The translations under genes were made by a program, and so were the position numbers. The notes beneath the pieces were generated by a model. The model saw only the letters and a list, made by a program, of their open reading frames with translations, did not search any database and was not told the origin of the DNA. From a bacterium (GTDB taxonomy: Bacteria > Patescibacteriota > Microgenomatia > Levybacterales > UBA12049), in NCBI GenBank assembly GCA_021824155.1, contig JAKALN010000001.1:15-64014 (forward strand): 64,000 nt of DNA, given 5' to 3'. Positions 22,406-33,705 of this stretch are shown here, piece by piece. Within the stretch, counting starts at the first letter, position 1, and each line of letters starts with the position of its first letter.

Positions 22406-23176
22406 TTATTTTACTTTTTCTTTTAAGAAGCTTTTTTCAATAGCTTCTATTGCTCCTTTCATTAAAATTATTCCTTTATTATCTAAAACCTGATATGTAT
22501 TTAATAAATTTGCGTCCAGAATATTTAATCCCTTAATATTTCTTCCCGCCTTTTTAACATTTTCCGCTTTGGGATCCGACGTTACCAGAAGAAGTTTTTT
22601 CTTTTTTCCTTCCAATGAAAGGTTTTTTAAAACATCCGACATTAATTTTGTTTTAGGCTCGATTTTTTCAAGACCGGTTAAAATTTTAATCTCTCCGCTT
22701 TGTACTTTTGCGGTTAAGGCGCTAAAAAGTGCAGCTCTTTTCATTTTTTGGGGAAGGCTTAAAGAGAAATCTCTGGGCCTTGGTCCAAACGCTACTCCTC
22801 CTCCTACATAAATAGGAGCAGACATTGCGCCGTGCCTTGCTCTTCCCGTACCTTTTTGCCTGTATACTTTTTTTGTTGTTTTATTTACCTCTCCCCTTGA
22901 TTTTGTTTTTACTGTTCCTTTCCTTCTATTTGAAAGAAAAACTCTTACTGCCTGCGCCATTAAATGGTTATTTACTTTAGCACCGAAAATTTCTTTGGGA
23001 AGAGTAAGGCTTTCAACTACTTTTCCTTTTGTATCGTAAACGCTCTGTTTAAGTCCGGTTTCTTTCGGTAATTCTCTAACTTCTCCTTTTACTTTTTTAG
23101 GAGCTGCCTTTTTTACAGCAGTTTTTGCTGTTTTTGCCGCAGGTTTTGCCGTTTTTGCTGAACTTTTACTTGGCAT
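22406..23176 (-). CDS. rplD: 50S ribosomal protein L4 with Lys/Ala-rich N-terminal extension
   Basis: L4 core (QKGTGRARHG). Confidence 0.85.
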   Translation of the reverse strand: MPSKSSAKTAKPAAKTAKTAVKKAAPKKVKGEVRELPKETGLKQSVYDTKGKVVESLTLPKEIFGAKVNNHLMAQAVRVFLSNRRKGTVKTKSRGEVNKTTKKVYRQKGTGRARHGAMSAPIYVGGGVAFGPRPRDFSLSLPQKMKRAALFSALTAKVQSGEIKILTGLEKIEPKTKLMSDVLKNLSLEGKKKKLLLVTSDPKAENVKKAGRNIKGLNILDANLLNTYQVLDNKGIILMKGAIEAIEKSFLKEKVK

Positions 23177-24122
23177 CTTCGTTTACCTCCTCTTTTTCTT
23201 TATTCTCTTCTCGTACAGGTTCTTCGCTTGAAACGGTAGGAGTCTGTCCGTTATCGGATGAACTGACAGCCGACTCTGTATTTTCCGCTATTTCTTCCGA
23301 TACTGTTTGTTGGCTGTCACTTAGCGAAGCAGGCTCTTCGGCTTGGGCTTTTTCTTCATTGCTCTGAGCGTCATCCGAAACGGATGGACGACTACCGTCT
23401 TCTTCTAAAACAGGTTCTGCTGCCTGAACTTCTTTCTGTGGCTCTGCTTGCTTCTCTTCTTCTACTTCTTTATACAAAGGGACAAATTTTTTGTTTTCTC
23501 CGACCTTTTTTATCATAACCAGTCCGTTTATGTGTCCGGGAATTAATCCTTTAATCAAAATTACTCCGTCATTTGTAACCTCTATCACTTCCAAATTTCT
23601 TACAGTAGAGGTCACGTGTCCCATTTTTCCGCCCATTTTCTTTCCTTTATAAACTCTTCCGGGGGTTGTTGTTTGTCCGATTGAACCCGGAGCTCTTTCC
23701 CTGTCGGATTGTCCGTGGGTTCTTGGTCCTCCTCTAAAATGCCATTTTTTAACAACTCCTGCCCATCCTTTTCCTTTGGAAACGCCGGAAACATCAACAA
23801 TATCTCCGGGTTTAAATACTTCGCTTACTTCTATTTTTGTTCCCGGAGTAAAATCCGAAACCTCCTCAACCCTTATTTCCCTAAAAAAGCGAGCTGTTTT
23901 TTCTAAGCCCGCTTTTTTTCCGTGTCCTTCAAGTGCTTTCGTTGTTTTTTTCTTGCTTCCAAATGCAATCTGAACGGAATTGTAGCCTTCCTTGTCTTGT
24001 GATTTTACCTGAGATATAAAGTTATCCGATGCAGCCACGGCAGATACAGGAATTCTTGTTCCGTCTTCTAAGAACCCCTGTGACTGATAACTTTTTTTAC
24101 CGATAAGTCCTTGTAAATTCAT
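23166..24122 (-). CDS. rplC: 50S ribosomal protein L3 with ~115-aa acidic Ser/Glu-rich C-terminal extension
   Basis: L3 core MNLQGLIGKK...GKGWAGVVKKWHF, then a low-complexity acidic tail. Start placed at the homology-supported Met (24122); the ORF track begins 15 codons earlier. Confidence 0.85.
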   Translation of the reverse strand: MNLQGLIGKKSYQSQGFLEDGTRIPVSAVAASDNFISQVKSQDKEGYNSVQIAFGSKKKTTKALEGHGKKAGLEKTARFFREIRVEEVSDFTPGTKIEVSEVFKPGDIVDVSGVSKGKGWAGVVKKWHFRGGPRTHGQSDRERAPGSIGQTTTPGRVYKGKKMGGKMGHVTSTVRNLEVIEVTNDGVILIKGLIPGHINGLVMIKKVGENKKFVPLYKEVEEEKQAEPQKEVQAAEPVLEEDGSRPSVSDDAQSNEEKAQAEEPASLSDSQQTVSEEIAENTESAVSSSDNGQTPTVSSEEPVREENKEKEEVNEDAK

Positions 24123-24295
24123 ATTCTCAAAAAAACACAAAAAAGCGACCACAACCAGCCGCTTCATTAGGCGAAAAAGTAAATTAAATGCGCCCGGTTA
24201 TGTAGCTACAATCACCCCTTGTGTGTTGAACATTTAAGTTAAGCCTAATTATATAATGCAACGAGCCTAAATGCAAGTACAATTAGAGGGGATTC

Positions 24296-24907
24296 TTAAA
24301 GAGCGCGCTTAATTTTTTTAATTTTTGAAATAAGAGCTTCACGTCCGACAGGTAGCCTGTCTATTCCACGGAAACAACTTTCGGCTGTTCTCTGATAATT
24401 TCTTCTTAAGAAAAGCACCAAATCCCGGGGCTCAAGTTTAGACTCATATACCGCTTCTCCTGCTGTTAAATTTATTTCATCAAGCGCTTTATCCCGTAAT
24501 TTATCGGGAAATTCTCCGTTAGGCAATAAATAGCTAAAATATTCTCTTACTTTCCGTGTTCTGGTTCCCCCTTCTATAAAATGGTTTACAAAACCCTTTA
24601 AAACCTCAACCGCCGTAAGAGGTTCACCGCCAGAAATATTAATAAAACCATATTCACGGCTCCACTCAAGCGGCCTTAAATTCTTGGAAGAATCGGAAGA
24701 AACAGAAAAAGATTCAATTGCCAAAAATTGGGGATTAGACGCCATTTGTCTTAATTTTTCATCTACTCTTAAAATTATTGCCAAATCACCTCTTTGGCCA
24801 ATATCTAAATCCTTTAAAACACCCATTAAGGATTCGTTTTTCGGTTGTAATTTTTCTTTGCCTGCACTCATAATGGGGAGTATAGCTCCAAAAGTACAAA
24901 TTTTCAA
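24296..24907 (-). CDS. Hypothetical protein (203 aa) inserted between rpsJ and rplC
   Basis: Long ORF in the operon orientation. Contains INISGGEPL but no Cys cluster. No family recognised. Confidence 0.5.
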   Translation of the reverse strand: MKICTFGAILPIMSAGKEKLQPKNESLMGVLKDLDIGQRGDLAIILRVDEKLRQMASNPQFLAIESFSVSSDSSKNLRPLEWSREYGFINISGGEPLTAVEVLKGFVNHFIEGGTRTRKVREYFSYLLPNGEFPDKLRDKALDEINLTAGEAVYESKLEPRDLVLFLRRNYQRTAESCFRGIDRLPVGREALISKIKKIKRAL

Positions 24908-24910
24908 CTA

Positions 24911-25065
24911 TGGGACGGACGAAACGAAGTGAAGGAGTCCGCTTGCGAGCGTAGCGAGACAAGGGAGGATCGGACGAAACGAAGTGAAGGAGTCCGCTTG
25001 CGAGCGTAGCGAGACAAGGGAGGATCGGACGAAACGAAGTGAAGGAGTCCGCTTGCCTGACAAGC
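24911..25065. repeat. GC-rich 55-bp tandem direct repeat, 2 full copies plus a partial third (unit GGACGAAACGAAGTGAAGGAGTCCGCTTGCGAGCGTAGCGAGACAAGGGAGGATC)
   Basis: Identical units start at 24916, 24971 and 25026. The third copy diverges after 30 nt. Confidence 0.9.
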
Positions 25066-25072
25066 GAGGTCT

Positions 25073-25381
25073 TTACATACGGATCTCAATATTTACTCCA
25101 GCTGGCAACTCTAGGTGTGTCAGTGAATCTATTGTTTTTTCTGTTGGGGAAACTATATCTATCAGTCTTTTATGGACTTTTATTTCAAAATGGTCTCTGG
25201 CGTTTTTATCTATAAATGGGGATTTGTTTACTGCGAATACGCTTCTTTTTGTAGGAAGAGGTATCGGACCTACGACTTTAGCTCCGGTCCTTATGGCCGT
25301 ATCTAAAATTTGCTGACACGTAGAGTCAATTACTCTTGCGTCATAGCTTTTTAATCGTACTCTTATTCTTCCTTTTGGCAT
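25073..25381 (-). CDS. rpsJ: 30S ribosomal protein S10
   Basis: MPKGRIRVRLKSYD start; 102 aa. Confidence 0.9.
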   Translation of the reverse strand: MPKGRIRVRLKSYDARVIDSTCQQILDTAIRTGAKVVGPIPLPTKRSVFAVNKSPFIDKNARDHFEIKVHKRLIDIVSPTEKTIDSLTHLELPAGVNIEIRM

Positions 25382-25470
25382 ATTTTAAAGTCCTGTCCGC
25401 CTTAAGCGCTCTTTAAAGCGTGAACGAATAGTTCTGGAAAGCTTTAAAGTAAGCTTTGGCTGATCCTTTA

Positions 25471-25495
25471 CAAAAAAAATGACCTTGCGGTCATT
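25471..25495 (-). terminator. Rho-independent terminator/attenuator downstream of tuf
   Basis: Hairpin AATGACC-TTGC-GGTCATT followed by an 8-T run on the minus strand. Confidence 0.5.
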
Positions 25496-25517
25496 GATTC
25501 TAACACTTATCAAAAGA

Positions 25518-26699
25518 TTAAGCAATAATCTTTGAGATTACTCCTGCTCCGACTGTCTTTCCGCCTTCTCTAACAGCAAATCTAAGTCCTTCTTCCATTG
25601 CAACAGGTACAATAAGCTTAACATTCATTTTTGCATTGTCTCCGGGCATGACCATTTCTACTCCGGATGGAAGTGTTGCTTCTCCTGTTACGTCTGTTGT
25701 CCTTATGTAAAACTGCGGCCTGTAACCCGTAAAGAATGGTGTATGCCTTCCGCCTTCTTCTTTTGCAAGAATATAAACTTCGGCTTCAAATTGAGTATGA
25801 GGTGTTATCGATCCGGGCTTTGCAACAACCTGTCCTCTTTCTACGTCTGCTTTTTCTACACCTCTAAGAAGTAATCCTACATTATCTCCTGCAATACCTT
25901 CGTCAAGCTGTTTTCTAAACATTTCAACTCCGGTTACAACCGATTGTCTTGTAGGTTTGATTCCTACTATTTCAACTGCTTCGTTTACCTTAACCTTACC
26001 TCTTTCAATTCTTCCTGTTACGACTGTTCCTCTTCCTTTAATTGAGAAAACGTCTTCAACAGGCATAAGGAACGGTTTTTCCGTATCTCTTACGGGTGTT
26101 GGGATATAATTATCAACCGCATCCATTAAAGCCAATATCTGTTTTTCCGCTTCTGCGTCGCCTTCCAAAGCTTTAAGAGCAGAGCCTCTTATAATTGGCA
26201 CATCATTTCCCGGATATTGGTATTTTGTAAGAAGTTCTCTTACTTCCATTTCTACCAAGTCCAAAAGTTCCGCATCCTGAACCATGTCGCATTTGTTAAG
26301 AAAAACAACGATTGATGGAACCTGTACTTGGTGGGCGAGTAAAATGTGTTCTCTTGTCTGTGGCATGGGGCCGTCGGGGGCTGAGACTACGAGGATTGCA
26401 CCGTCCATTTGGGCGGCTCCCGTAATCATATTCTTAATGTAATCTGCGTGTCCCGGAGCATCTATGTGGGCATAGTGTCTTTTGTCTGTTTCGTATTCTA
26501 CGTGGGTAATGTTAATGGTGACGCCTCTTGCTTTTTCTTCGGGGGCATTGTCAATATCTTCGTATTTCATTGCTTTTGCCTGTCCCTTTTTAGATAAAAC
26601 AGTAGCAATAGCCGCCGTTAAGGTGGTCTTACCGTGGTCAACATGACCGATTGTTCCTATATTTACATGTGGTTTTGTTCTTTCAAATTTATCTGCCAT
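25518..26699 (-). CDS. tuf: Elongation factor Tu
   Basis: [15 protein letters not shown]-equivalent blocks and the full EF-Tu length (393 aa). Confidence 0.95.
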
Positions 26700-26791: not shown

Positions 26792-27373
26792 TTAAAGTTT
26801 TTCCTCTTCGGGGATTTCGCCCGCAGGGGCGCTATAAAAAGAATGTTCCAGCCTACTGTTAGCATCTGCTCTTTCTATCAAGTCATAAACGTGAATTGCT
26901 CCGGAAATTACACTTCTTCTTCCGGTTCTATAACGGGATACAACGTCTAAAAACCTAAAAACAGGAGAGCCTTCGGCTCTTATCAATTCAAATTTTCCGT
27001 CAATTATTTCCTGATATTTTTTCCCTTCATCAACCGCATCAAGATAATCATGATTGTATGCCGAAATTAATTCTTCGGAAACAGGAGGAAGACTTTGTCC
27101 ATAAACCTCTGCCCGGGTCCTTAACAATCTGTACATAAGAAGTGCCCCCTCCGTAAAATCATGCTCATAACGGGAATGCATTCTGGACCTTTTTTCTATA
27201 AACGAAATAAGAGGCCTGTTTCCGTCCAAAAACATTTTTTCTCTTTCGTCACGAAAAAATTTTTCCGGGGCTCTGTCAATTTCTACCTGAACCTGTTCCA
27301 AAGTTTTTTGGACAGTTTTACTGTCTATGGGAAAGATTTCTGCTGTTGACCCCTGATTTTCCTGCTCCGGCAT
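26792..27373 (-). CDS. Hypothetical protein (193 aa)
   Basis: Long ORF; no family recognised. Confidence 0.45.
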   Translation of the reverse strand: MPEQENQGSTAEIFPIDSKTVQKTLEQVQVEIDRAPEKFFRDEREKMFLDGNRPLISFIEKRSRMHSRYEHDFTEGALLMYRLLRTRAEVYGQSLPPVSEELISAYNHDYLDAVDEGKKYQEIIDGKFELIRAEGSPVFRFLDVVSRYRTGRRSVISGAIHVYDLIERADANSRLEHSFYSAPAGEIPEEEKL

Positions 27374-27396
27374 AATGAAAAGATTATAACACTTAT

Positions 27397-28011
27397 TTAA
27401 AATACCAATTTTATTCCTTTTGTTTCTTTCAGAAAAAAATTCATACCGTCCGACTCGATTTTTGCATAAGCCAGATTGTCAATTTTTAGATAACCTTTGT
27501 AAGGATAAAATCCCAGCTTAATTAAACTATGTCTAATAACTCCGCCGTGGGAAACTATTAAAATTTTTTTCCCCGGGTTTTCGACAATAATTCCTTTTAA
27601 ATAGATTAAAAATCTCGACGCTATTTCTCCGTCACTTTCCATTCCAGGATGATGCCTATATGAATATTTTTCTTTTTCCTCAAGTTTATCCATAATTCTG
27701 TCTATTTCTTCTAAAATATCATGCTGATGCCCTTCATACGGACCATAATTTCTTTCGCGTAAAGCCATTGATGTTTCAACTTCAAGTTTATGTTCCAAAG
27801 AAATGATTTCCGCTGTCTGTTTTGCGCGAAGTAAATCTGAAGAATAGACTTTATCGAATTTTATTTGCCTTAGTTCTTTTGCCAATTCCTGCGCCTGATT
27901 TTTTCCTTCCGTATTTAACGGGATATCCGTGTGCCCTTGAATTTTCCCTTCAATATTCCAATCGGTCAGGCCATGCCTTACCAAATAAATCGTGCAGAAA
28001 TTATTTTTCAT
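27397..28011 (-). CDS. Histidine phosphatase family protein (phosphoglycerate mutase-like)
   Basis: N-terminal LVRHGLTDWN (RHG catalytic motif). Confidence 0.7.
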   Translation of the reverse strand: MKNNFCTIYLVRHGLTDWNIEGKIQGHTDIPLNTEGKNQAQELAKELRQIKFDKVYSSDLLRAKQTAEIISLEHKLEVETSMALRERNYGPYEGHQHDILEEIDRIMDKLEEKEKYSYRHHPGMESDGEIASRFLIYLKGIIVENPGKKILIVSHGGVIRHSLIKLGFYPYKGYLKIDNLAYAKIESDGMNFFLKETKGIKLVF

Positions 28012-28541
28012 CTTAATTTTTCTATATCTTCCAAAATTTCTTTTATTTCTTTACTTGTGATTAACGTTCTGCTATTTTCAAAAAATTCCTCAAGATTTAT
28101 TTTATGTGCAACTTCATATTCGTAGGCCTGCATTGCCATTTCAAGTTTATCTATTTCTTTAACCAATTTCGCTTCTTTACTCTCATCTTTCTCAAACTCA
28201 TCAAATAAGCCAACATATTCATCTCCCTCTACCAAAGAAAAAATCATTTTTACGGCTTCACGTTCTTTCTCTGATTTGCTTAAAAAATTACTCAATTTTT
28301 TCTTTCCGTGCATAATAATAATGTCACCGATTTCTCCTTCTCCAATGTCATGTATTAATGACATCTTTACCGATTTATTTACATCTGCTCCAACTTTAGG
28401 TGCTAAAACCATTGCCATCACCGCAGTTCTAAAAGAATGCTCTGCCACACTTTCCGGATTTGGAACATTGTGATTTACCCATCCGGTCCTCTTTATGTTT
28501 TTTAATTTACCAATAACTTTAAAAAAATCAATCAATTTCAT
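28008..28541 (-). CDS. HD-domain phosphohydrolase (YfbR-like 5'-deoxynucleotidase family)
   Basis: AEHSFRTAVMA ... LIHDIGEGEIGD metal-binding His/Asp pattern. Confidence 0.65.
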   Translation of the reverse strand: MKLIDFFKVIGKLKNIKRTGWVNHNVPNPESVAEHSFRTAVMAMVLAPKVGADVNKSVKMSLIHDIGEGEIGDIIIMHGKKKLSNFLSKSEKEREAVKMIFSLVEGDEYVGLFDEFEKDESKEAKLVKEIDKLEMAMQAYEYEVAHKINLEEFFENSRTLITSKEIKEILEDIEKLR

Positions 28542-29083
28542 ACATTTTTATACATTAAAATTGCGTCTTCAAAAGTATTATCCCTTGTTATTCCGTTTGG
28601 CAAAAGTCCGTATTCTTTAAAACCAAAACCCTCGTATATTCTTTTTGCTATCGAATTTTTTGAATAAACTTCAAGAGTCACAATTTTTAACTGCGGCATT
28701 TCTTTTTTTGCTTCGTCAATAACTTTTTCCATTAAAAGTTTCCCTAAGCCTTCGTTTCTGTATTCTTTTGCAACGGAAATCCCGAAAACTCCTACGTGTT
28801 TTTCGGTTTTGTCCATCATATTTATACCCGAAATAGCAATTAATTCCTCTCCCCAAAAAGCCAAAAGAGTAACGGATTTTTTCTCTTCAATTCTTTTAAG
28901 CTGTGCATTCAAATAGTTTTCTTCGTCTTCAAATAGAATCTCTTCCCCCTGAAACCTTACAAAAGTTTTTTCTTTGGAAAGTCCGTTAATATACCTCCAC
29001 ATTTCATTTTGGTCGCCGATTCTAGGATACCTGATAATAATTTCTTTGCCCGTTTTAGTTTTGCCCCGAAAAACATATTTCAT
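28538..29083 (-). CDS. GNAT family N-acetyltransferase
   Basis: Acetyl-CoA binding region RNEGLGKLLMEKVIDEAK. Confidence 0.7.
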   Translation of the reverse strand: MKYVFRGKTKTGKEIIIRYPRIGDQNEMWRYINGLSKEKTFVRFQGEEILFEDEENYLNAQLKRIEEKKSVTLLAFWGEELIAISGINMMDKTEKHVGVFGISVAKEYRNEGLGKLLMEKVIDEAKKEMPQLKIVTLEVYSKNSIAKRIYEGFGFKEYGLLPNGITRDNTFEDAILMYKNV

Positions 29084-29114
29084 ATGTTTGGATTATAACA
29101 AATGAATAAAAACG

Positions 29115-29492
29115 TTAAAGCGTTTTTTTATACGAGAGGAGGAATCCGGTACTAATTGTAATCATAGGATAGACAAGATAATTTAATCCTATCTCTTTAA
29201 TATAATCGGGAAGACTCATTTTTATCGGCCCCCAGATAAAAAAGAAATAATCGAAGAAAAGGCTCATTGCTATAAAAACCAGTCCTAAGAAAATTCCCTC
29301 CCTAAGGTTGCCGTCTATTTTTCTAAAATACAAAGCAGTTGCGGCAACAACGGCAATAGTTGAAAATACAGTCATCAGGGATTGAAAAAACAATGGATCC
29401 GATTTTTTAAGCGGAAAAATTGCGACGGAAGCTATAAATGGAATTATCCAGAGTAAAAATCCGTATAATATCGCGGTTTTTATTGCTTTCAT
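29115..29492 (-). CDS. Small integral membrane protein (4 predicted TM)
   Basis: Hydrophobic segments throughout. Confidence 0.45.
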   Translation of the reverse strand: MKAIKTAILYGFLLWIIPFIASVAIFPLKKSDPLFFQSLMTVFSTIAVVAATALYFRKIDGNLREGIFLGLVFIAMSLFFDYFFFIWGPIKMSLPDYIKEIGLNYLVYPMITISTGFLLSYKKTL

Positions 29493-29513
29493 ATTTTTAT
29501 TATACTAATTAAA

Positions 29514-30197
29514 TCAAATAAAGTCTTCCGCTCTTTCCTTAGGGCTCCAGCCGAAAGGATTTGATACATCATGAACTCTGTCCCGGTTATCCGATACTCC
29601 ATATATTGCCACAAAATTTCCGGGAACTTTTTCCGCTTCCAAAACTTTCCTAACCAAAGAAATACAATCATTATGAGAAAGCCATGCTGCTCTTTCTTCT
29701 TTTGGATATTTTTCTACGGAAGGGGGTATATTTGCAGGATTTATTCCCCCAAAACGTATAGCAACTACTTCCAACCCCCCTTTTGCAAAATACCTGCCCA
29801 AGGTTTCTATAAAAATTTTATCCGCGCCGTATGGGCTGTCGGGAACCGGAGTATGTCCGGTGGAAAGAAATGGAGCTTCTCCGTAAAAAGAATCAGCGTG
29901 AATTGAACTGGCAATAATTACTCTTTTTACTTTTGCTTCCCTTGCCCCTTTATATACATTAAGGGCCATCTGTGCATTACTAGGGTCAATAATCTCATTT
30001 CTTAAATGTTCATTATTTGACCAAGCAAGGTGAACTACGGCGGTATTTCCTTCCAGCGCTTTTAATAATTCCTGATAATTTGTGGCATCTGTTTGAGGTA
30101 AATCGATCCCCTTTATTTCAAAATCTCCGGATAAACCATTCCTAAGAATGGTACCTATTGTGCCATTCGAACCCGTAATCGCAATTCTTTCTTTCAC
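29514..30197 (-). CDS. NAD(P)-dependent oxidoreductase/epimerase family (short SDR-like, 227 aa)
   Basis: ITGSNGTIGT Rossmann motif and YGADK (YxxxK). Confidence 0.6.
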   Translation of the reverse strand: MKERIAITGSNGTIGTILRNGLSGDFEIKGIDLPQTDATNYQELLKALEGNTAVVHLAWSNNEHLRNEIIDPSNAQMALNVYKGAREAKVKRVIIASSIHADSFYGEAPFLSTGHTPVPDSPYGADKIFIETLGRYFAKGGLEVVAIRFGGINPANIPPSVEKYPKEERAAWLSHNDCISLVRKVLEAEKVPGNFVAIYGVSDNRDRVHDVSNPFGWSPKERAEDFI

Positions 30198-30259
30198 GAT
30201 TGGATTATATCACTTTGCCGTCTTGACAAAGTTATCAGTATATTTAAAAATAAAATCAG

Positions 30260-30739
30260 ATGGCTATTGCAGAAGCCCCAGGAAACTTCTTTCCCGGTTA
30301 CCGGGATATATCTGCTCTCTCTCAAGAACAATTAGCAAGAATCGAACAAGGCAATAGGGCTCATAGGCTGGGAAGAAAGTCTGAAATAAAAGCAGCATCT
30401 GCTCTTGAAGGATTGAAAGTAAATGGAGAAAGGGTCATTGAAAGCGTAACAAGAAATGAATGGGGAGGAGAAGAAGATGCAATGGGTCACGATTTAACTC
30501 TGGAAACAGTTATTGGACCTGTTTGGGTTCAGGTTAAATCAAGCGAGGAAGGAATGGAAGATTTTATGGCTCAAGAAGGAGAAAGATTATCAAAACTTGG
30601 TATTAAAATGTCTGTAAGAGAATCTTTTGCCAGAAGAAGACTCGTACTTTTAAATGGAAATAGAAGCAGAGATGATATTGCAAGAAATTTTCTGTTACAA
30701 TTCAAAAAAATACAAAGAGTTGTTGCCCAAGTAGCTTAG
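30260..30739 (+). CDS. Hypothetical protein (159 aa), GC-elevated
   Basis: Long ORF convergent with the next gene; no family recognised. Confidence 0.4.
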   Translation: MAIAEAPGNFFPGYRDISALSQEQLARIEQGNRAHRLGRKSEIKAASALEGLKVNGERVIESVTRNEWGGEEDAMGHDLTLETVIGPVWVQVKSSEEGMEDFMAQEGERLSKLGIKMSVRESFARRRLVLLNGNRSRDDIARNFLLQFKKIQRVVAQVA

Positions 30740-31047
30740 GATTTAGGATTTCTAATAGGACGCCAAGCTTGTCTTTTCTCCGATTTAAATATAATTGTTT
30801 CGGGAGCTCTAAAAATAATCTGATATATTTTAGGAACATGAACGCGCGCTTCTCTTCCTATTCGAAGATGTCCCCTTGTTCCGTCTTTATGCTCTATTAG
30901 TTGAGCTCTGAAATCATTATATCTATCGATATCTCTATTTGTTGATCCGCCGCTTAACGCGCGTGAGGTAATTTCCGGCAGCTCTCTAATAATTACATCT
31001 AAAGCCTCCTGAGGATCTTGAGTTACTATTTCTATCGGTGAACGCAT
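30736..31047 (-). CDS. Hypothetical protein (103 aa)
   Basis: ORF immediately downstream of fusA; no family recognised. Confidence 0.4.
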   Translation of the reverse strand: MRSPIEIVTQDPQEALDVIIRELPEITSRALSGGSTNRDIDRYNDFRAQLIEHKDGTRGHLRIGREARVHVPKIYQIIFRAPETIIFKSEKRQAWRPIRNPKS

Positions 31048-31053
31048 TGTTTT

Positions 31054-33159
31054 TTATTCTACTCTTCCCGTAAATGTGGATTTTGCAAGCATCCCCTCGA
31101 CAATATTTCGTGGAACTTCCTCATAATGAGAAGGTTCCATATAATAAGAGGCACGCCCCTGGGACATAGACCGCAACGTTGTTGCGTATCCGGAAAGCTC
31201 TGCCAAAGGAACCATTGCCAAAATAACTGTTGCTTTTCCTCTTTCCTCGGTTCCCATAATCTGTGCCCTTTTTGCGGACAAATCTCCTATTACGTCTCCC
31301 ATAAATTCACTTGGAGTTGTTACTTCAACTTTCATAATAGGCTCCAAAAGCGCCATATCCGCTTTTTTAGAAGCTGCCTGCAAAGCCTGAGATGCGGCAA
31401 TTTTAAAAGCAACTTCCGAAGAATCAACCTCGTGAAAAGAACCGTCATAAACCGTCACTTCCATATCCACCACCGGGTAACCCAAAAGTATTCCGTTTTC
31501 CAGTGTTTCCTTTACTCCCTTTTCAATCGCTTTAATAAACTCTGCCGGAATTGCTCCTCCCTTAATTGCGTCCACAAATTCGTATCCTTCACCTCTTGGC
31601 TTAGGTTTAATCCTTAACCAGCAGTGTCCGTACTGGCCTCTTCCTCCGGACTGCCTTATATATTTTCCTTCCCCTTCGGCTTCCTGTTTGATTGTTTCTT
31701 TATATGCTACCTGGGGCGCTCCTACATTTGCCAAAACACTGAATTCCCTTTTCATCCTGTCAACCATAATTTCAAGCTGTAATTCTCCCATTCCCGAAAT
31801 TATTGTCTGTCCGGTCTCGTGGTTTGTTTTTATTCTAAATGTAGGGTCTTCTTCGGAAAGCCTTTTTAAGGCAAATCCGAGCTTTTCCTGGTCAGCTTTT
31901 GTTTTAGGTTCAATGGCAAGCGAAATAACCGGCTCCGGAAAAGTAATCTGCTCTAAAATAACCGGGGCTTTTTCTTCACAAAGAGTATCTCCTGTTCCTG
32001 TTTCTTTAAGGCCAACCAATGCAACTATTTCTCCGGCATAAGCTTCTTTAATTTCTTCCCTGTGGTTTGCGTGCATTAAAAGAATACGTCCGACTCTTTC
32101 GGTTTGGTTTTTTGAACTGTTATAAATATAAGAACCTGCCACAACTTTTCCGGAATAAACTCTGAAATAAGTTAACTTTCCTACATGAGGGTCAATTTGT
32201 ATTTTAAAAGCCAGTCCTGCCGTGGGCTCTGTTGCTTCCGGTTTTCTTTTTTCTGTTTCCCCCGTTTTTGGGTTATGCCCTTCGACTTCTCCTACATCTA
32301 AAGGAGAAGGAAGATAATCTACAACCGCGTCAAGTAAAGGCTGTACGCCTTTATTCCTTAAAGACGAGCCTGCAAAAATAGGGACAAGTTTATAAGCAAT
32401 AACCGCTCTTCTTAAGGCCGCTTTTAATTCGTCGTTTGAAATTTCTTCGTTATTTAAATATTTTTCTATTAAGATATCATCTGTTTCCGCTATTTTTTCA
32501 ACCAGTTTATGCCTGTATTCTTTTACCTGCTCTTTCATCTCTTCGGGAATTTCGTCTTTTACTTCAAATTTTGCCCCCAACTCTTCCCCTCCCCAAATAT
32601 AAGACTTCATATCCAAGAGATGAACTATCCCTTTAAATGTTGATTCAGCGCCTATTGGCAAAACCATTATCAAAGGGTTTGCCCCCAAGCGGTCCTCGAT
32701 ACTTTTTACGGTTGCTAAGAAATCCGCCCCTAATTTATCCATTTTATTTACAAAACAAAGCCTCGGTACTTTATATTTATCCGCCTGCCTCCAGACAGTT
32801 TCGGACTGCGACTGTACTCCTTCTTCCGCGTCCAAAACAGTAATTCCTCCGTCTAAAACCCTAAGGGACCTTTCTACTTCTGCCGTAAAATCAACGTGTC
32901 CGGGAGTATCTATAATATTTATCCTGTAATCGTGCCAGAATGCGGTTGTAGCGGCCGAGACAATTGTTATTCCTCTTTCTCTTTCCTGTTCCATCCAGTC
33001 CATCTGGGTATTCCCTTCGTCAATGTCTCCTATTTTGTAGGTTTTTCCCGTATAAAAAAGAATACGCTCGGTAGTAGTTGTTTTACCCGCGTCAATATGG
33101 GCAATGATACCAATATTTCTTACTTTGTCTAATGTTTTAAGCCTGTCTTCTTGTGCCAT
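31054..33159 (-). CDS. fusA: Elongation factor G
   Basis: [15 protein letters not shown] start and the full 5-domain length (701 aa). Confidence 0.95.
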
Positions 33160-33222
33160 ATAATAACCTTAAAAAAACTCTCCCTCCTGGAAGAGCCATA
33201 AAATTATAGCATAAATACCACT

Positions 33223-33705
33223 CTATTGGCTAGTGTTTTCAGCGGTTAAGCGGGATAGAAGTTTTTCTGCTTCCGTTACAGCTAATTTATCGTCTTCGCC
33301 TTTGTCCAGGGTAGTGATTGTATCCTCAGGACCCAAATATGGGTCGATTCTTGTTCTTTCAAAAGTTACATATGCTTCTGTTGGTAAAGGAGCAAGTTGT
33401 ATGTCTAAGGATTCTTCTATTGTGTTTCCCGGAGCCTCCGGAGTATCGGCCCTTACTTTTAAAAATCCGTCTTCTCCTTGAGAATAGGAAAAATCATATT
33501 CTGTTTCTCCTCTTGTAGCCCTAAAAGAGATTCCAGACTCGTCTTCAAGTGCGAATTTTCTTTCGCGCATAGCCTCTAAAGCTTTTAAATACGACCCCTT
33601 AAGTTCTTTTGCTCGAGCCTTCAATTGCTCTCCCACTGTTAACCACTCGGTTGGCTTTTGCGCTTCATTAGGTGATTGTCCTTCCCCTTTTGGCTCGTTG
33701 TCCAT
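33223..33705 (-). CDS. Hypothetical acidic protein (160 aa) between rpsG and fusA
   Basis: ORF in operon orientation; no family recognised. Confidence 0.45.
   Translation of the reverse strand: MDNEPKGEGQSPNEAQKPTEWLTVGEQLKARAKELKGSYLKALEAMRERKFALEDESGISFRATRGETEYDFSYSQGEDGFLKVRADTPEAPGNTIEESLDIQLAPLPTEAYVTFERTRIDPYLGPEDTITTLDKGEDDKLAVTEAEKLLSRLTAENTSQ

Follow-up and report, generated by a model that had tools for sequence, protein, structure and literature searches.

The ribosomal protein genes and the interval between them

The DNA comes from a bacterium of the CPR, near Candidatus Microgenomates. In the window, i.e., the whole 64-kb stretch of DNA that was analysed, the ribosomal protein genes rpsJ and rplC stand apart, and the question is whether the DNA between them is a foreign insertion within a single S10 transcript, as stated in the original prediction, or the junction between two transcription units. 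All genes of the region are on the minus strand. The two flanking genes are as follows.

25073-25381, minus strand: rpsJ (ribosomal protein S10, 102 aa), an open reading frame 90-99% identical in relatives
23166-24122, minus strand: rplC (ribosomal protein L3, 318 aa), with the conserved start MNLQGLIGKK at the ATG at 24122

The Pfam domain Ribosomal_S10 is recorded for the identical rpsJ gene of the relatives L001-L003, and the rplC product has a long acidic C-terminal tail. The 333-aa reading of rplC by gene callers begins within a terminator hairpin (described below); the conserved start gives 318 aa. From the position of rpsJ and of the rplC ATG, the gap between the two genes is thus 950 bp, in keeping with the approximately 900 bp first estimated.

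An extra gene that resists annotation had been proposed to lie in this gap. It is indeed present, and it is missing from L016, L020, L024 and L026, where only 168-193 bp separate rpsJ from rplC and these consist of a promoter and a leader only. Other lineages have other genes upstream of the rplC promoter, identified with Pfam as Fic (1.7e-19), Pep_deformylase (1.4e-38) and Replic_Relax (4.3e-11). The L3 proteins are 87-93% identical among L014, which has the extra gene, L020, which has nothing at this position, and L022, which has a peptide deformylase gene (def) upstream. A comparison of synteny, suggested at the outset, gave a divided answer: some relatives lack the gene between rpsJ and rplC, but all carriers have it at the same position.

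The 55-bp tandem repeat

24916-25056, no strand assigned: perfect tandem repeat of 55 bp in 2.6 copies (TRF, 100% matches), between the rpsJ stop codon and the promoter of the extra gene

About 2.5 perfect copies of a 55-bp unit had been described here, and TRF finds the same period with 2.6 copies. The repeat consists of a 31-nt core, GCAAGCGGACTCCTTCACTTCGTTTCGTCCG in the operon orientation, which is present three times and is joined by a 24-nt linker present twice. The G+C content of the array is 52-57% in 100-nt windows, compared with approximately 31-45% on either side, and the repeat is therefore more GC-rich than its surroundings, as had been noted. Further copies of the unit were sought in the 64-kb window, but the three occurrences of the 31-nt core in the array are the only ones there; shuffled sequences are expected to contain none. 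The array is not a CRISPR, as the copies are head to tail with a period of 55 and are without unique spacers. An origin of the repeat spacer by deletion of a def, Fic or relaxase gene was likewise rejected, since tblastn gave no credible signal in the spacer of the window.

Copy number differs among relatives. In L001-L003, whose copy of the extra gene is 99% identical, the interval is exactly 55 bp shorter, which corresponds to 1.6 copies, although these are short-read assemblies, which can collapse tandem repeats. A more distant relative (L004, 76%) displays a single diverged 31-nt core that is approximately 85% identical, and in L005, L013 and L014 the repeat is absent. Thus copy numbers of 2.6, 1.6, 1 and 0 are found among relatives that all keep the extra gene and both of the promoters described below. 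Perfect tandem copies that differ in number between close strains, here in short-read assemblies, are the mark of a VNTR.

The partial dyad symmetry attributed to the repeat is real to the extent that short stems of 4-5 bp exist, but the RNA in the operon orientation folds no better than shuffled sequences (z = -0.39; 73 of 200 shuffles are equally stable), and L004 does not preserve the 5-bp CGGAC/GUCCG stem. Rfam gave no match for the repeat or the interval at E <= 10, and none at the gathering score across the window. A regulatory element, one of the roles offered for the repeat, is not indicated by a sequence that varies in copy number, has no RNA structure and draws a blank in Rfam.

The repeat is similar to intergenic VNTRs or minisatellites in its perfect head-to-tail copies, its strain-variable number, its absence from more distant relatives and its want of conserved structure. 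There is no difference of substance from a typical member of this class; it should be noted, however, that the G+C content of the unit is unusually high for this genome and that the 31-nt core is older than the duplication. We conclude that a GC-rich spacer segment already present in the rpsJ 3′ region was recently duplicated in tandem to give the 55-bp repeat, and that the repeat has the behavior of a VNTR; we found no function for it.

No terminator-like site is found between rpsJ and the extra gene, and the array is thus probably transcribed as the 3′ region of rpsJ. This is one point in favor of the original view, whereby foreign gene and repeat would lie within a single S10 transcript and the GC-rich array would be a regulatory RNA or a protein-binding array; the perfection, base composition and uniqueness of the array in the window are others, as is the presence of the core in L004. 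Against it are the folding and Rfam results, the broken stem, the fall in copy number to zero with gene and promoters retained, and the absence of mobile-element hallmarks (see below). We consider this explanation highly improbable. The original prediction had also named, beforehand, the pattern that would count against it, namely a gene shared at the same site and a VNTR-like repeat, and this is essentially what is seen.

The orphan gene

24296-24871, minus strand: orphan gene of 191 aa, a predicted alpha/beta cytoplasmic protein (from homologues, dN/dS and AlphaFold2)
24879-24907, minus strand: predicted orphan-gene promoter, TTGAAA-17 bp-TATACT (10 of 12 matches in the scan; conserved)

The open reading frame as read mechanically has 203 aa and begins with a TTG at 24907. 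An ORF in the operon orientation is therefore present as described, but its length is not that of the gene. Homologues are all 180-193 aa and start where the ATG at 24871 falls, and the conserved -35 and -10 elements lie within the 203-aa reading; the gene is thus 191 aa, from 24296 to 24871. The promoter, TTGAAA/TTGACA-17-TATACT/TATAAT with a variable spacer, is kept in L004, L005, L007, L013 and L014. In all, the gene is carried by only about six lineages, in each between rpsJ and rplC and behind a near-consensus promoter. Since the -10 element ends 7 nt before the ATG, the mRNA would be leaderless or nearly so. No terminator is found 3′ of the gene, and transcription from its promoter probably continues into the rplC leader.

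The protein family is extremely narrow: it comprises four clusters (50% identity) in a set of 1.84 billion representatives. That the ORF belongs to no recognizable family, as first stated, was confirmed: Pfam, NCBIfam, PHROGs and PADLOC gave nothing significant, a search of the family profile against PDB sequences had a best E of 0.024, which is spurious, and a fold search with Foldseek, which covered PDB (best E 0.95) and BFVD, gave no fold match. The INISGGEPL motif pointed out earlier is present, and across the family only G-E-P-L-T is conserved. The protein has a single Cys, as do its relatives, with the exception of P0006, which has none; the reported lack of a radical-SAM Cys cluster is therefore correct. 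A radical SAM or 4Fe-4S protein (CxxxCxxC) was rejected, as the best that Fer4_12 reached, in a single member, was 12.1 bits (E = 0.25), short of the gathering threshold of 22. A decayed peptide deformylase, which would have the same size and occupy the same slot, was also rejected (hhalign probability 0.24%; the EGCLS and HExxH motifs are absent).

The dN/dS of 0.23 relative to L004 indicates purifying selection. An AlphaFold2 model from four sequences had a pLDDT of 41.7; with three more divergent members added, the pLDDT rose to 87.2, with a pTM of 0.85. The isoelectric point is 5.3-6.5 in five of the six members. We regard the orphan as a genuine cytoplasmic protein, folded and of roughly neutral pI. 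It resembles the ORFans of CPR genomes, which are likewise small, fast-evolving, without annotation and from narrow families, but differs from them in being unusually well supported (pLDDT 87, dN/dS 0.23) and fixed between rpsJ and the rplC promoter.

A foreign origin of the ORF had been proposed. The G+C content is that of the locality, the borders display no inverted or direct repeats, and the order of divergence among lineages roughly follows that of L3, although the gene evolves much faster than L3. A foreign origin is not supported. An IS element, MITE or other mobile insertion was rejected because flanking repeats are absent, the repeat core is unique in the window, and collections of phages, plasmids and viral contigs contain no match to the orphan. 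A related explanation is that the ORF is a recently acquired cargo of the mobile or defence type, like Fic and Replic_Relax in the slot elsewhere. The slot clearly accepts such genes, and the narrowness and fast evolution of the family would suit this origin, but the empty searches of PADLOC, PHROGs and the phage, plasmid and viral-contig collections, the absence of terminal repeats and target duplications, the native G+C and the agreement with the L3 divergence order make it very unlikely.

A further explanation ties the orphan to translation, for example as a ribosome-associated or assembly factor kept by rpsJ and rplC for co-expression. Peptide deformylase is a ribosome-associated enzyme, and it occupies the slot in other lineages. 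The position of the orphan is identical in six lineages even as its identity drops to 30%, and the gene has a strong promoter of its own with probable read-through into the rplC leader; this constant placement beside ribosomal genes could reflect a functional link. However, the isoelectric points are unlike those of ribosomal proteins, the gene is lost in L020, a close relative with 89% identity in L3 to the orphan-bearing L014, the slot also hosts Fic and Replic_Relax, which have no ribosome link, and the rplC leader is intact where the ORF is missing. The explanation is thus regarded as unlikely. Our best guess is that the orphan is a dispensable accessory protein, possibly translation-associated.

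The predicted promoter and leader of rplC

24248-24276, minus strand: predicted promoter of the rplC unit, TTGCAT (24276-24271), 17 bp, TATAAT (24253-24248), from conservation
24198-24233, minus strand: upstream ORF (uORF) of 11 codons (MFNTQGVIVAT) and a stop codon, with conserved start, frame and stop
24150-24202, minus strand: predicted antiterminator, 5′ arm CAUAACCGGGCGC (24202-24190) pairing with GCGGCUGGUUGUG (24162-24150)
24129-24165, minus strand: predicted intrinsic terminator (attenuator), a 10-pair hairpin (24165-24142) followed by TTTTTTGTGTTTTTTT

The predicted rplC promoter starts 20 nt past the orphan stop codon. Of 19 lineages, 17 retain TTGCAT and 18 retain TATAAT, with a near-universal 17-bp spacing and a variable spacer sequence. 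The exceptions are L023 (TTGCAA), L016 and L026 (CTGCAT at 17-bp spacing) and L018 (TATTTAAT). Both this element and the predicted orphan-gene promoter, the latter in six lineages, have the form of a sigma-70-type promoter. The two promoters and the terminator are predictions from sequence, and the transcription start sites are placed accordingly.

The -35 element of rplC scores below the threshold of a generic promoter scan.

The original prediction held that the interval lies inside the operon and must be co-transcribed with it. This was not upheld, as two conserved promoter-like elements and, next to rplC, a terminator are found. With promoters of their own for the ORF and for rplC, rplC would head a separate unit, and the ORF would lie at the junction between units.

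The rplC promoter and leader are better conserved than the adjacent coding DNA, and matches to the leader pattern in metagenomes are all directly upstream of an L3 gene (13 of 13). The leader is approximately 125 nt long and contains a uORF of 11-12 codons, the predicted antiterminator and the predicted intrinsic terminator. Rfam has no family that matches it, and the covariance model R1 revealed no second copy in the window, where the only other match had an E of 0.99. A literature search for uORF attenuators before rplC or for ribosomal leaders in CPR found nothing relevant.

In all 12 sequence variants the ATG of the uORF is invariant, an in-frame stop is at the same site after 11-12 codons, and the only indel is of 3 nt; the ATG is 12-16 nt past the -10 element. 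Leader-peptide attenuators likewise have a short ORF whose start, frame and stop are conserved. The uORF includes a Shine-Dalgarno (SD)-like block, GGGGTGAT (24218-24211), which is GGAGGTG in relatives, and its C-terminal consensus is (E/G)V(I/F)(V/L)(A/T)(T/P). There is no excess of third-position change (9, 6 and 6 variable columns at the three positions), and coding is thus plausible but not proven. Conservation of the best-preserved part is at the level of nucleotides, so that binding of RNA or protein could account for it without translation. We infer that the uORF is translated. No run of regulatory codons is visible in it.

Predicted alternative pairing in the leader

The terminator has a GC-containing hairpin and a U tract, as expected of an intrinsic terminator, and the T6GTGT7 tract that follows the hairpin ends 6 nt before the rplC ATG. 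In an alignment of 17 sequences, pairing is maintained in 94% of the cells of its stem, and changes in the stem are one-sided only. RNAalifold on the leader recovers the terminator only.

The 5′ arm of the antiterminator includes the stop codon of the uORF, and this arm pairs with a segment that makes up the 5′ half and the loop in the terminator. When the 3′ arm of the terminator is omitted, the antiterminator is the MFE structure in 12 of 13 lineages; L008 has no good antiterminator. The energy of the cognate duplex is -10 to -20 kcal/mol, and in 11 of 12 lineages at least 97% of shuffles are less stable; cognate arms differ from non-cognate arms with a permutation p of 0.006. Column-wise covariation is not significant; the helix register is shifted by 1 nt between clades, which realignment did not resolve. 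With the uORF and 13 nt beyond it masked, the terminator becomes the MFE structure in six of six lineages, while the free leader RNA already folds into the terminator in two of the six.

These observations should be weighed against a classical attenuator in which L4 or L3 stabilizes the terminator, the role that L4 has in the Escherichia coli S10 leader, and the apparent uORF is a by-product of a protein-binding RNA. Such a site would account for the conservation of GGAGGUG..ACAUAA at the nucleotide level without synonymous-site excess, and most lineages are predicted to form a hairpin with AGGAG exposed in the loop; the architecture, a leader of approximately 125 nt whose terminator shortly precedes the first gene, also matches that of the E. 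coli S10 leader (PMC3616713). However, the leader has no Rfam family, and a pure protein-binding site does not need the invariant ATG, the in-frame stop, the restriction of indels to 3 nt or the fixed distance of the ATG from the -10, constraints which therefore argue against it. The location of the stop codon exactly in the predicted antiterminator arm also does not favor it. We regard a protein-stabilized terminator as rather unlikely.

Proposed explanation

The reading that we prefer has two transcription units, an attenuator leader before rplC, a slot that accepts cargo, a vertically inherited orphan gene and a VNTR-like repeat; jointly, these are given a probability of about 0.62. Between the rpsJ stop codon and the rplC promoter, the DNA would tolerate cargo; depending on the lineage, this stretch is empty or contains Fic, peptide deformylase or Replic_Relax. 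The orphan gene would have entered or arisen a single time, in the ancestor of a small clade. Since then it would have passed down vertically, with loss in at least one close relative, and it would be expressed from its own strong, nearly leaderless promoter.

In this clade, rplC-rplD-rplW-rplB and the genes that follow would be transcribed from their own promoter through the attenuator leader. In naked leader RNA the antiterminator would form, and RNA polymerase would continue. If a ribosome occupied the uORF or its stop codon, perhaps kept there by the SD-like GGAGGUG, it would cover the antiterminator arm, and the terminator would then form. Ribosome availability would thereby exert negative feedback on transcription of the main ribosomal-protein operon, a direction of regulation that we infer. 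We put the rplC leader forward as a candidate for a new ribosomal leader, which possibly senses ribosome occupancy. A wider version, in which the attenuator senses ribosomes and the orphan is a lineage-specific translation-associated factor expressed into the same leader, is considered rather unlikely.

Comparison with known leaders

The S10 leader of E. coli, which acts by L4-dependent termination and translational inhibition and is reportedly restricted to Gammaproteobacteria (PMC3616713), is similar in being the 5′ leader of a large operon with rplC and rplD, in having an intrinsic terminator some tens of nucleotides upstream of the first cistron, and in a presumed feedback control of ribosomal-protein synthesis (PMC3616713). 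It differs in its location before rpsJ, whereas the leader described here is after rpsJ and directly before rplC, and has a conserved uORF and an SD-like block. A leader of the E. coli S10 type, with homologous HD/HE hairpins, was rejected, given the position downstream of rpsJ and the lack of a match to an Rfam covariance model.

Attenuators of the trp/his, pyrBI and ermC types share with the rplC leader a short ORF near the 5′ end. They also have mutually exclusive antiterminator and terminator helices between which the position of the ribosome chooses, as is predicted for the rplC leader. The differences are that the rplC uORF has no regulatory codon run, and that its C-terminal half and the SD-like sequence are the conserved parts. 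In addition, a ribosome at the stop codon is predicted to favor termination, which would report ribosome availability and not that of one amino acid, and the genes downstream encode ribosomal proteins.

Significance

To our knowledge, how the S10/spc cluster is balanced outside Gammaproteobacteria is largely unknown. The rplC leader is a more interesting feature than the orphan gene or the repeat. The repeat is useful only as a strain marker, and the orphan protein offers a well-supported subject for structure-function studies. For annotation, it should be noted that gene callers treat the rpsJ-rplC interval as a single operon and misplace the start of rplC. The arrangement of promoter, uORF, antiterminator and terminator before rplC offers a concrete and testable candidate for control in an uncultured CPR clade, and one that may work by sensing ribosomes and not free ribosomal protein. 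If this is true, free ribosome capacity, and not a single free ribosomal protein, would set the synthesis of ribosomal proteins in CPR bacteria of the Microgenomates type.

Organization of the rpsJ-rplC region

The genes of the ribosomal operon in the window all lie on the minus strand, and 950 bp separate rpsJ from rplC. The features are as follows.

25518-26699, minus strand: tuf
25495-25478, minus strand: terminator-like hairpin 3′ of tuf
25073-25381, minus strand: rpsJ
directly 5′ of the orphan-gene ATG, minus strand: predicted orphan-gene promoter, TTGAAA-17-TATACT (10/12 matches)
24276-24248, minus strand: predicted rplC promoter, TTGCAT-17-TATAAT, starting 20 nt past the ORF stop codon
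24122, minus strand: ATG, conserved start of rplC
downstream of rplC, minus strand: rplD, rplW, rplB, rpsS and rplV, in that order

The split of rpsJ from rplC by an extra ORF and a 55-bp repeat, as given in the original prediction, is borne out by the gap and by Tandem Repeats Finder. The ORF, first read as 203 aa, is a real gene, but its length is corrected to 191 aa (24296-24871); the longer reading starts at a TTG at 24907 and is a mechanical ORF call. In the stretch 24122-24167, gene callers give rplC as 333 aa (MKRLVVVAF...) from an upstream ATG within the terminator hairpin, and do the same in the three contigs of a near-identical strain (L001, 10705; L002, 3295; L003, 1326). The conserved L3 N-terminus, MNLQGLIGKK, begins at 24122 and yields 318 aa. 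L3 has an acidic, Ser/Glu-rich C-terminal extension of ~100 aa (23166-23478), and L4 a Lys/Ala-rich N-terminal extension, part of which is encoded by 2.6 tandem copies of a 21-bp unit (81% matches; 23105-23158).

The tuf-rpsJ gap is 136 bp in the window and ~70 bp to ~2.4 kb in relatives (L016, L018, L021, L026). In the window this spacer (25382-25517) consists of the terminator-like hairpin and, after it, ~95 nt 5′ of rpsJ in which small hairpins occur. The str/S10 cluster is also broken up at 26792-33705: the fusA-tuf interval holds eight non-ribosomal genes, one of them a 193-aa ORF, and rpsG and fusA are separated by an unannotatable 160-aa gene (33223-33705) that has no Pfam match.

The orphan gene and the variable junction

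The orphan protein shows nothing above threshold in Pfam, NCBIfam, PHROGs or PADLOC, the sole sub-threshold line being Fer4_12 (12 bits, E 0.25). Among 5.8 billion proteins, a word-seeded search found three relatives, each of 191 aa, at 99, 76 and 51% identity; four clusters in total came from 1.84 billion cluster representatives searched exhaustively with a profile. All family members that can be placed (the near-identical strain L001-L003, and L004, L005/L006, L007, L013 and L014) sit between rpsJ and rplC in identical orientation. Against the 76% relative, dN/dS is 0.23. AlphaFold2 with six diverse members models an alpha/beta protein (pLDDT 87.2, pTM 0.85); an input of four sequences gave a pLDDT of only 41.7. 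The single Cys argues against a radical-SAM protein, and the pI of 5.3-6.5 in most members against a ribosomal protein. Peptide deformylase, found in the same slot elsewhere, was compared and is unrelated. No flanking repeats were found at the gene borders, and no relatives among phage, plasmid and viral-contig collections.

A TTGAAA/TTGACA and TATACT/TATAAT pair with 17-bp spacing precedes the gene in every ORF-bearing lineage, with varying spacer sequence. A (C)C(C/T)ATAG motif directly 5′ of the -35 (24908-24915), kept in all lineages including L005, L013 and L014, could belong to an operator or to an extended form of the promoter. Between the end of the -10 and the ATG lie 7-14 nt. A similar arrangement is found in the 193-aa ORF adjoining tuf (orf193, 26792-27373; no Pfam match), which has a TATAAT 9 nt 5′ of its ATG; this suggests that near-leaderless mRNAs may be usual in the organism.

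In other related contigs the slot, bounded by the rpsJ stop codon and the rplC promoter, is empty or differs in content, the cargo genes being unrelated.

L016, L020, L024 and L026: empty, 168-193 bp in all
L018 and L021: Fic/DOC protein with C-terminal HTH (about 4977-5945 in L021)
L023: peptide deformylase
L015: Replic_Relax gene, approx. 1627-2433, opposite strand
L025: 821 bp (1886-2706) without a long ORF, faint Fic remnant

In the L025 gap, 13 aa faintly resemble the Fic C-terminus (E 0.003), and the gap may represent a decayed gene. L017 and L022 also have peptide deformylase (def), just 5′ of their leader. L3 proteins are 87-93% identical among L014 (ORF), L020 (empty) and L022 (def upstream) despite the different slot content, which indicates fast turnover. 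Gene turnover has a local hotspot at the junction of rpsJ with the rplC promoter, and the extra gene is a clade-specific orphan at a permissive junction; as first framed, it is real but largely ordinary.

The 55-bp repeat

The 55-bp unit is present in 2.6 copies, 100% identical, at 24916-25056, with a G+C of 52-57% vs ~31-45% on the flanks. The array contains its 31-nt core three times and the rest of the 64-kb window not at all (zero expected); the core is also absent from viral contigs searched. L001-L003 lack exactly 55 bp, one repeat unit. In L004 the core is present once, ~85% identical, directly 5′ of the promoter (Smith-Waterman score 39 vs 14.1 +/- 2.3 for shuffles), and L007 shows marginal similarity only. 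L005, L013 and L014 have no repeat, and their rpsJ stop codon is 57-77 bp from the promoter. The suggested regulatory RNA or protein-binding array is unsupported, since the repeat RNA does not fold better than shuffled sequence, its one 5-bp stem is disrupted in L004, and copy number varies. We conclude that the repeat arose by recent tandem duplication of part of the spacer and varies like a VNTR, with the caveat that arrays of this type can be collapsed in short-read assembly.

A candidate leader upstream of rplC

The spacer between the ORF and rplC is conserved beyond the neighbouring coding DNA. The element (24117-24276, minus strand) recurs in 19 or more related contigs; its predicted TTGCAT-17-TATAAT promoter is nearly invariant over 19 lineages, with a variable spacer sequence. 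A degenerate leader pattern matched 13 metagenome contigs, in each case immediately 5′ of an L3 gene whose product has 44-76% identity to that of the window. No Rfam 15 match was found, at E <= 10 over the region or at the gathering score over the window.

A putative upstream ORF (uORF) begins at an invariant ATG 12-16 nt 3′ of the -10. It is 11 or 12 codons long, with an in-frame TAA/TAG at one site in 12/12 sequence variants. It would read MFNTQGVIVAT* in the window, and MVITQEVIVAT* or MINNRTEVFLAT* in other lineages. A third-position excess was looked for in the uORF and none was seen. Its GGAGGUG block, a perfect SD-like sequence ~11 nt 5′ of the last sense codon, is conserved at the nucleotide level.

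The predicted intrinsic terminator is a 10-pair hairpin followed by T6GTGT7, ending 6 nt 5′ of the rplC ATG; its stem is 94% paired over 17 sequences. In several relatives the rplC ATG adjoins the U tract, without an SD sequence. The putative antiterminator 5′ arm, CAUAACCGGGCGC, spans the final sense codon and the stop of the uORF plus the 8 nt that follow, and its partner is the terminator 5′ half plus loop. With the terminator 3′ arm omitted, this helix is the MFE structure in 12 of 13 lineages. The duplex has -10 to -20 kcal/mol and is better than at least 97% of shuffles in 11/12 lineages. Cognate arms outpair non-cognate ones (permutation p = 0.006), and CCGG/CUGG-type and UAGAG/CUCUA-type arms do not interchange. 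RNAalifold recovers the terminator and no other helix; column-wise covariation in a covariance-model alignment is not significant, as the helix register is offset by 1 nt between clades. L008 (a Microgenomates MAG, 1-111) keeps uORF and terminator and has no good antiterminator pairing; the alternative partner of the terminator 5′ arm could be a CGCGCG stretch within the uORF of L008.

The free leader RNA is predicted to be antiterminated in 4/6 lineages. When the uORF plus 13 nt is masked, mimicking a ribosome at the stop codon, the terminator is the MFE structure in 6/6. The element is a candidate for a new ribosomal leader whose attenuator is linked to the uORF; its mechanism is inferred.

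The E. coli S10 leader, 5′ of rpsJ, mediates termination that depends on L4 as well as repression of translation, and is reported to be restricted to Gammaproteobacteria (PMC3616713). Both leaders place a terminator before a large ribosomal-protein operon; however, they differ in position and sequence, and probably in effector. In layout the rplC leader resembles leader-peptide attenuators, but it lacks a regulatory codon run. In attenuator surveys, leader peptides form a class apart from ribosomal-protein leaders (PMC2965389), and a literature search found no description of a uORF attenuator before rplC or of its combination with a ribosomal-protein leader. The candidate rplC leader is a valuable by-product of following up the orphan gene and the repeat.
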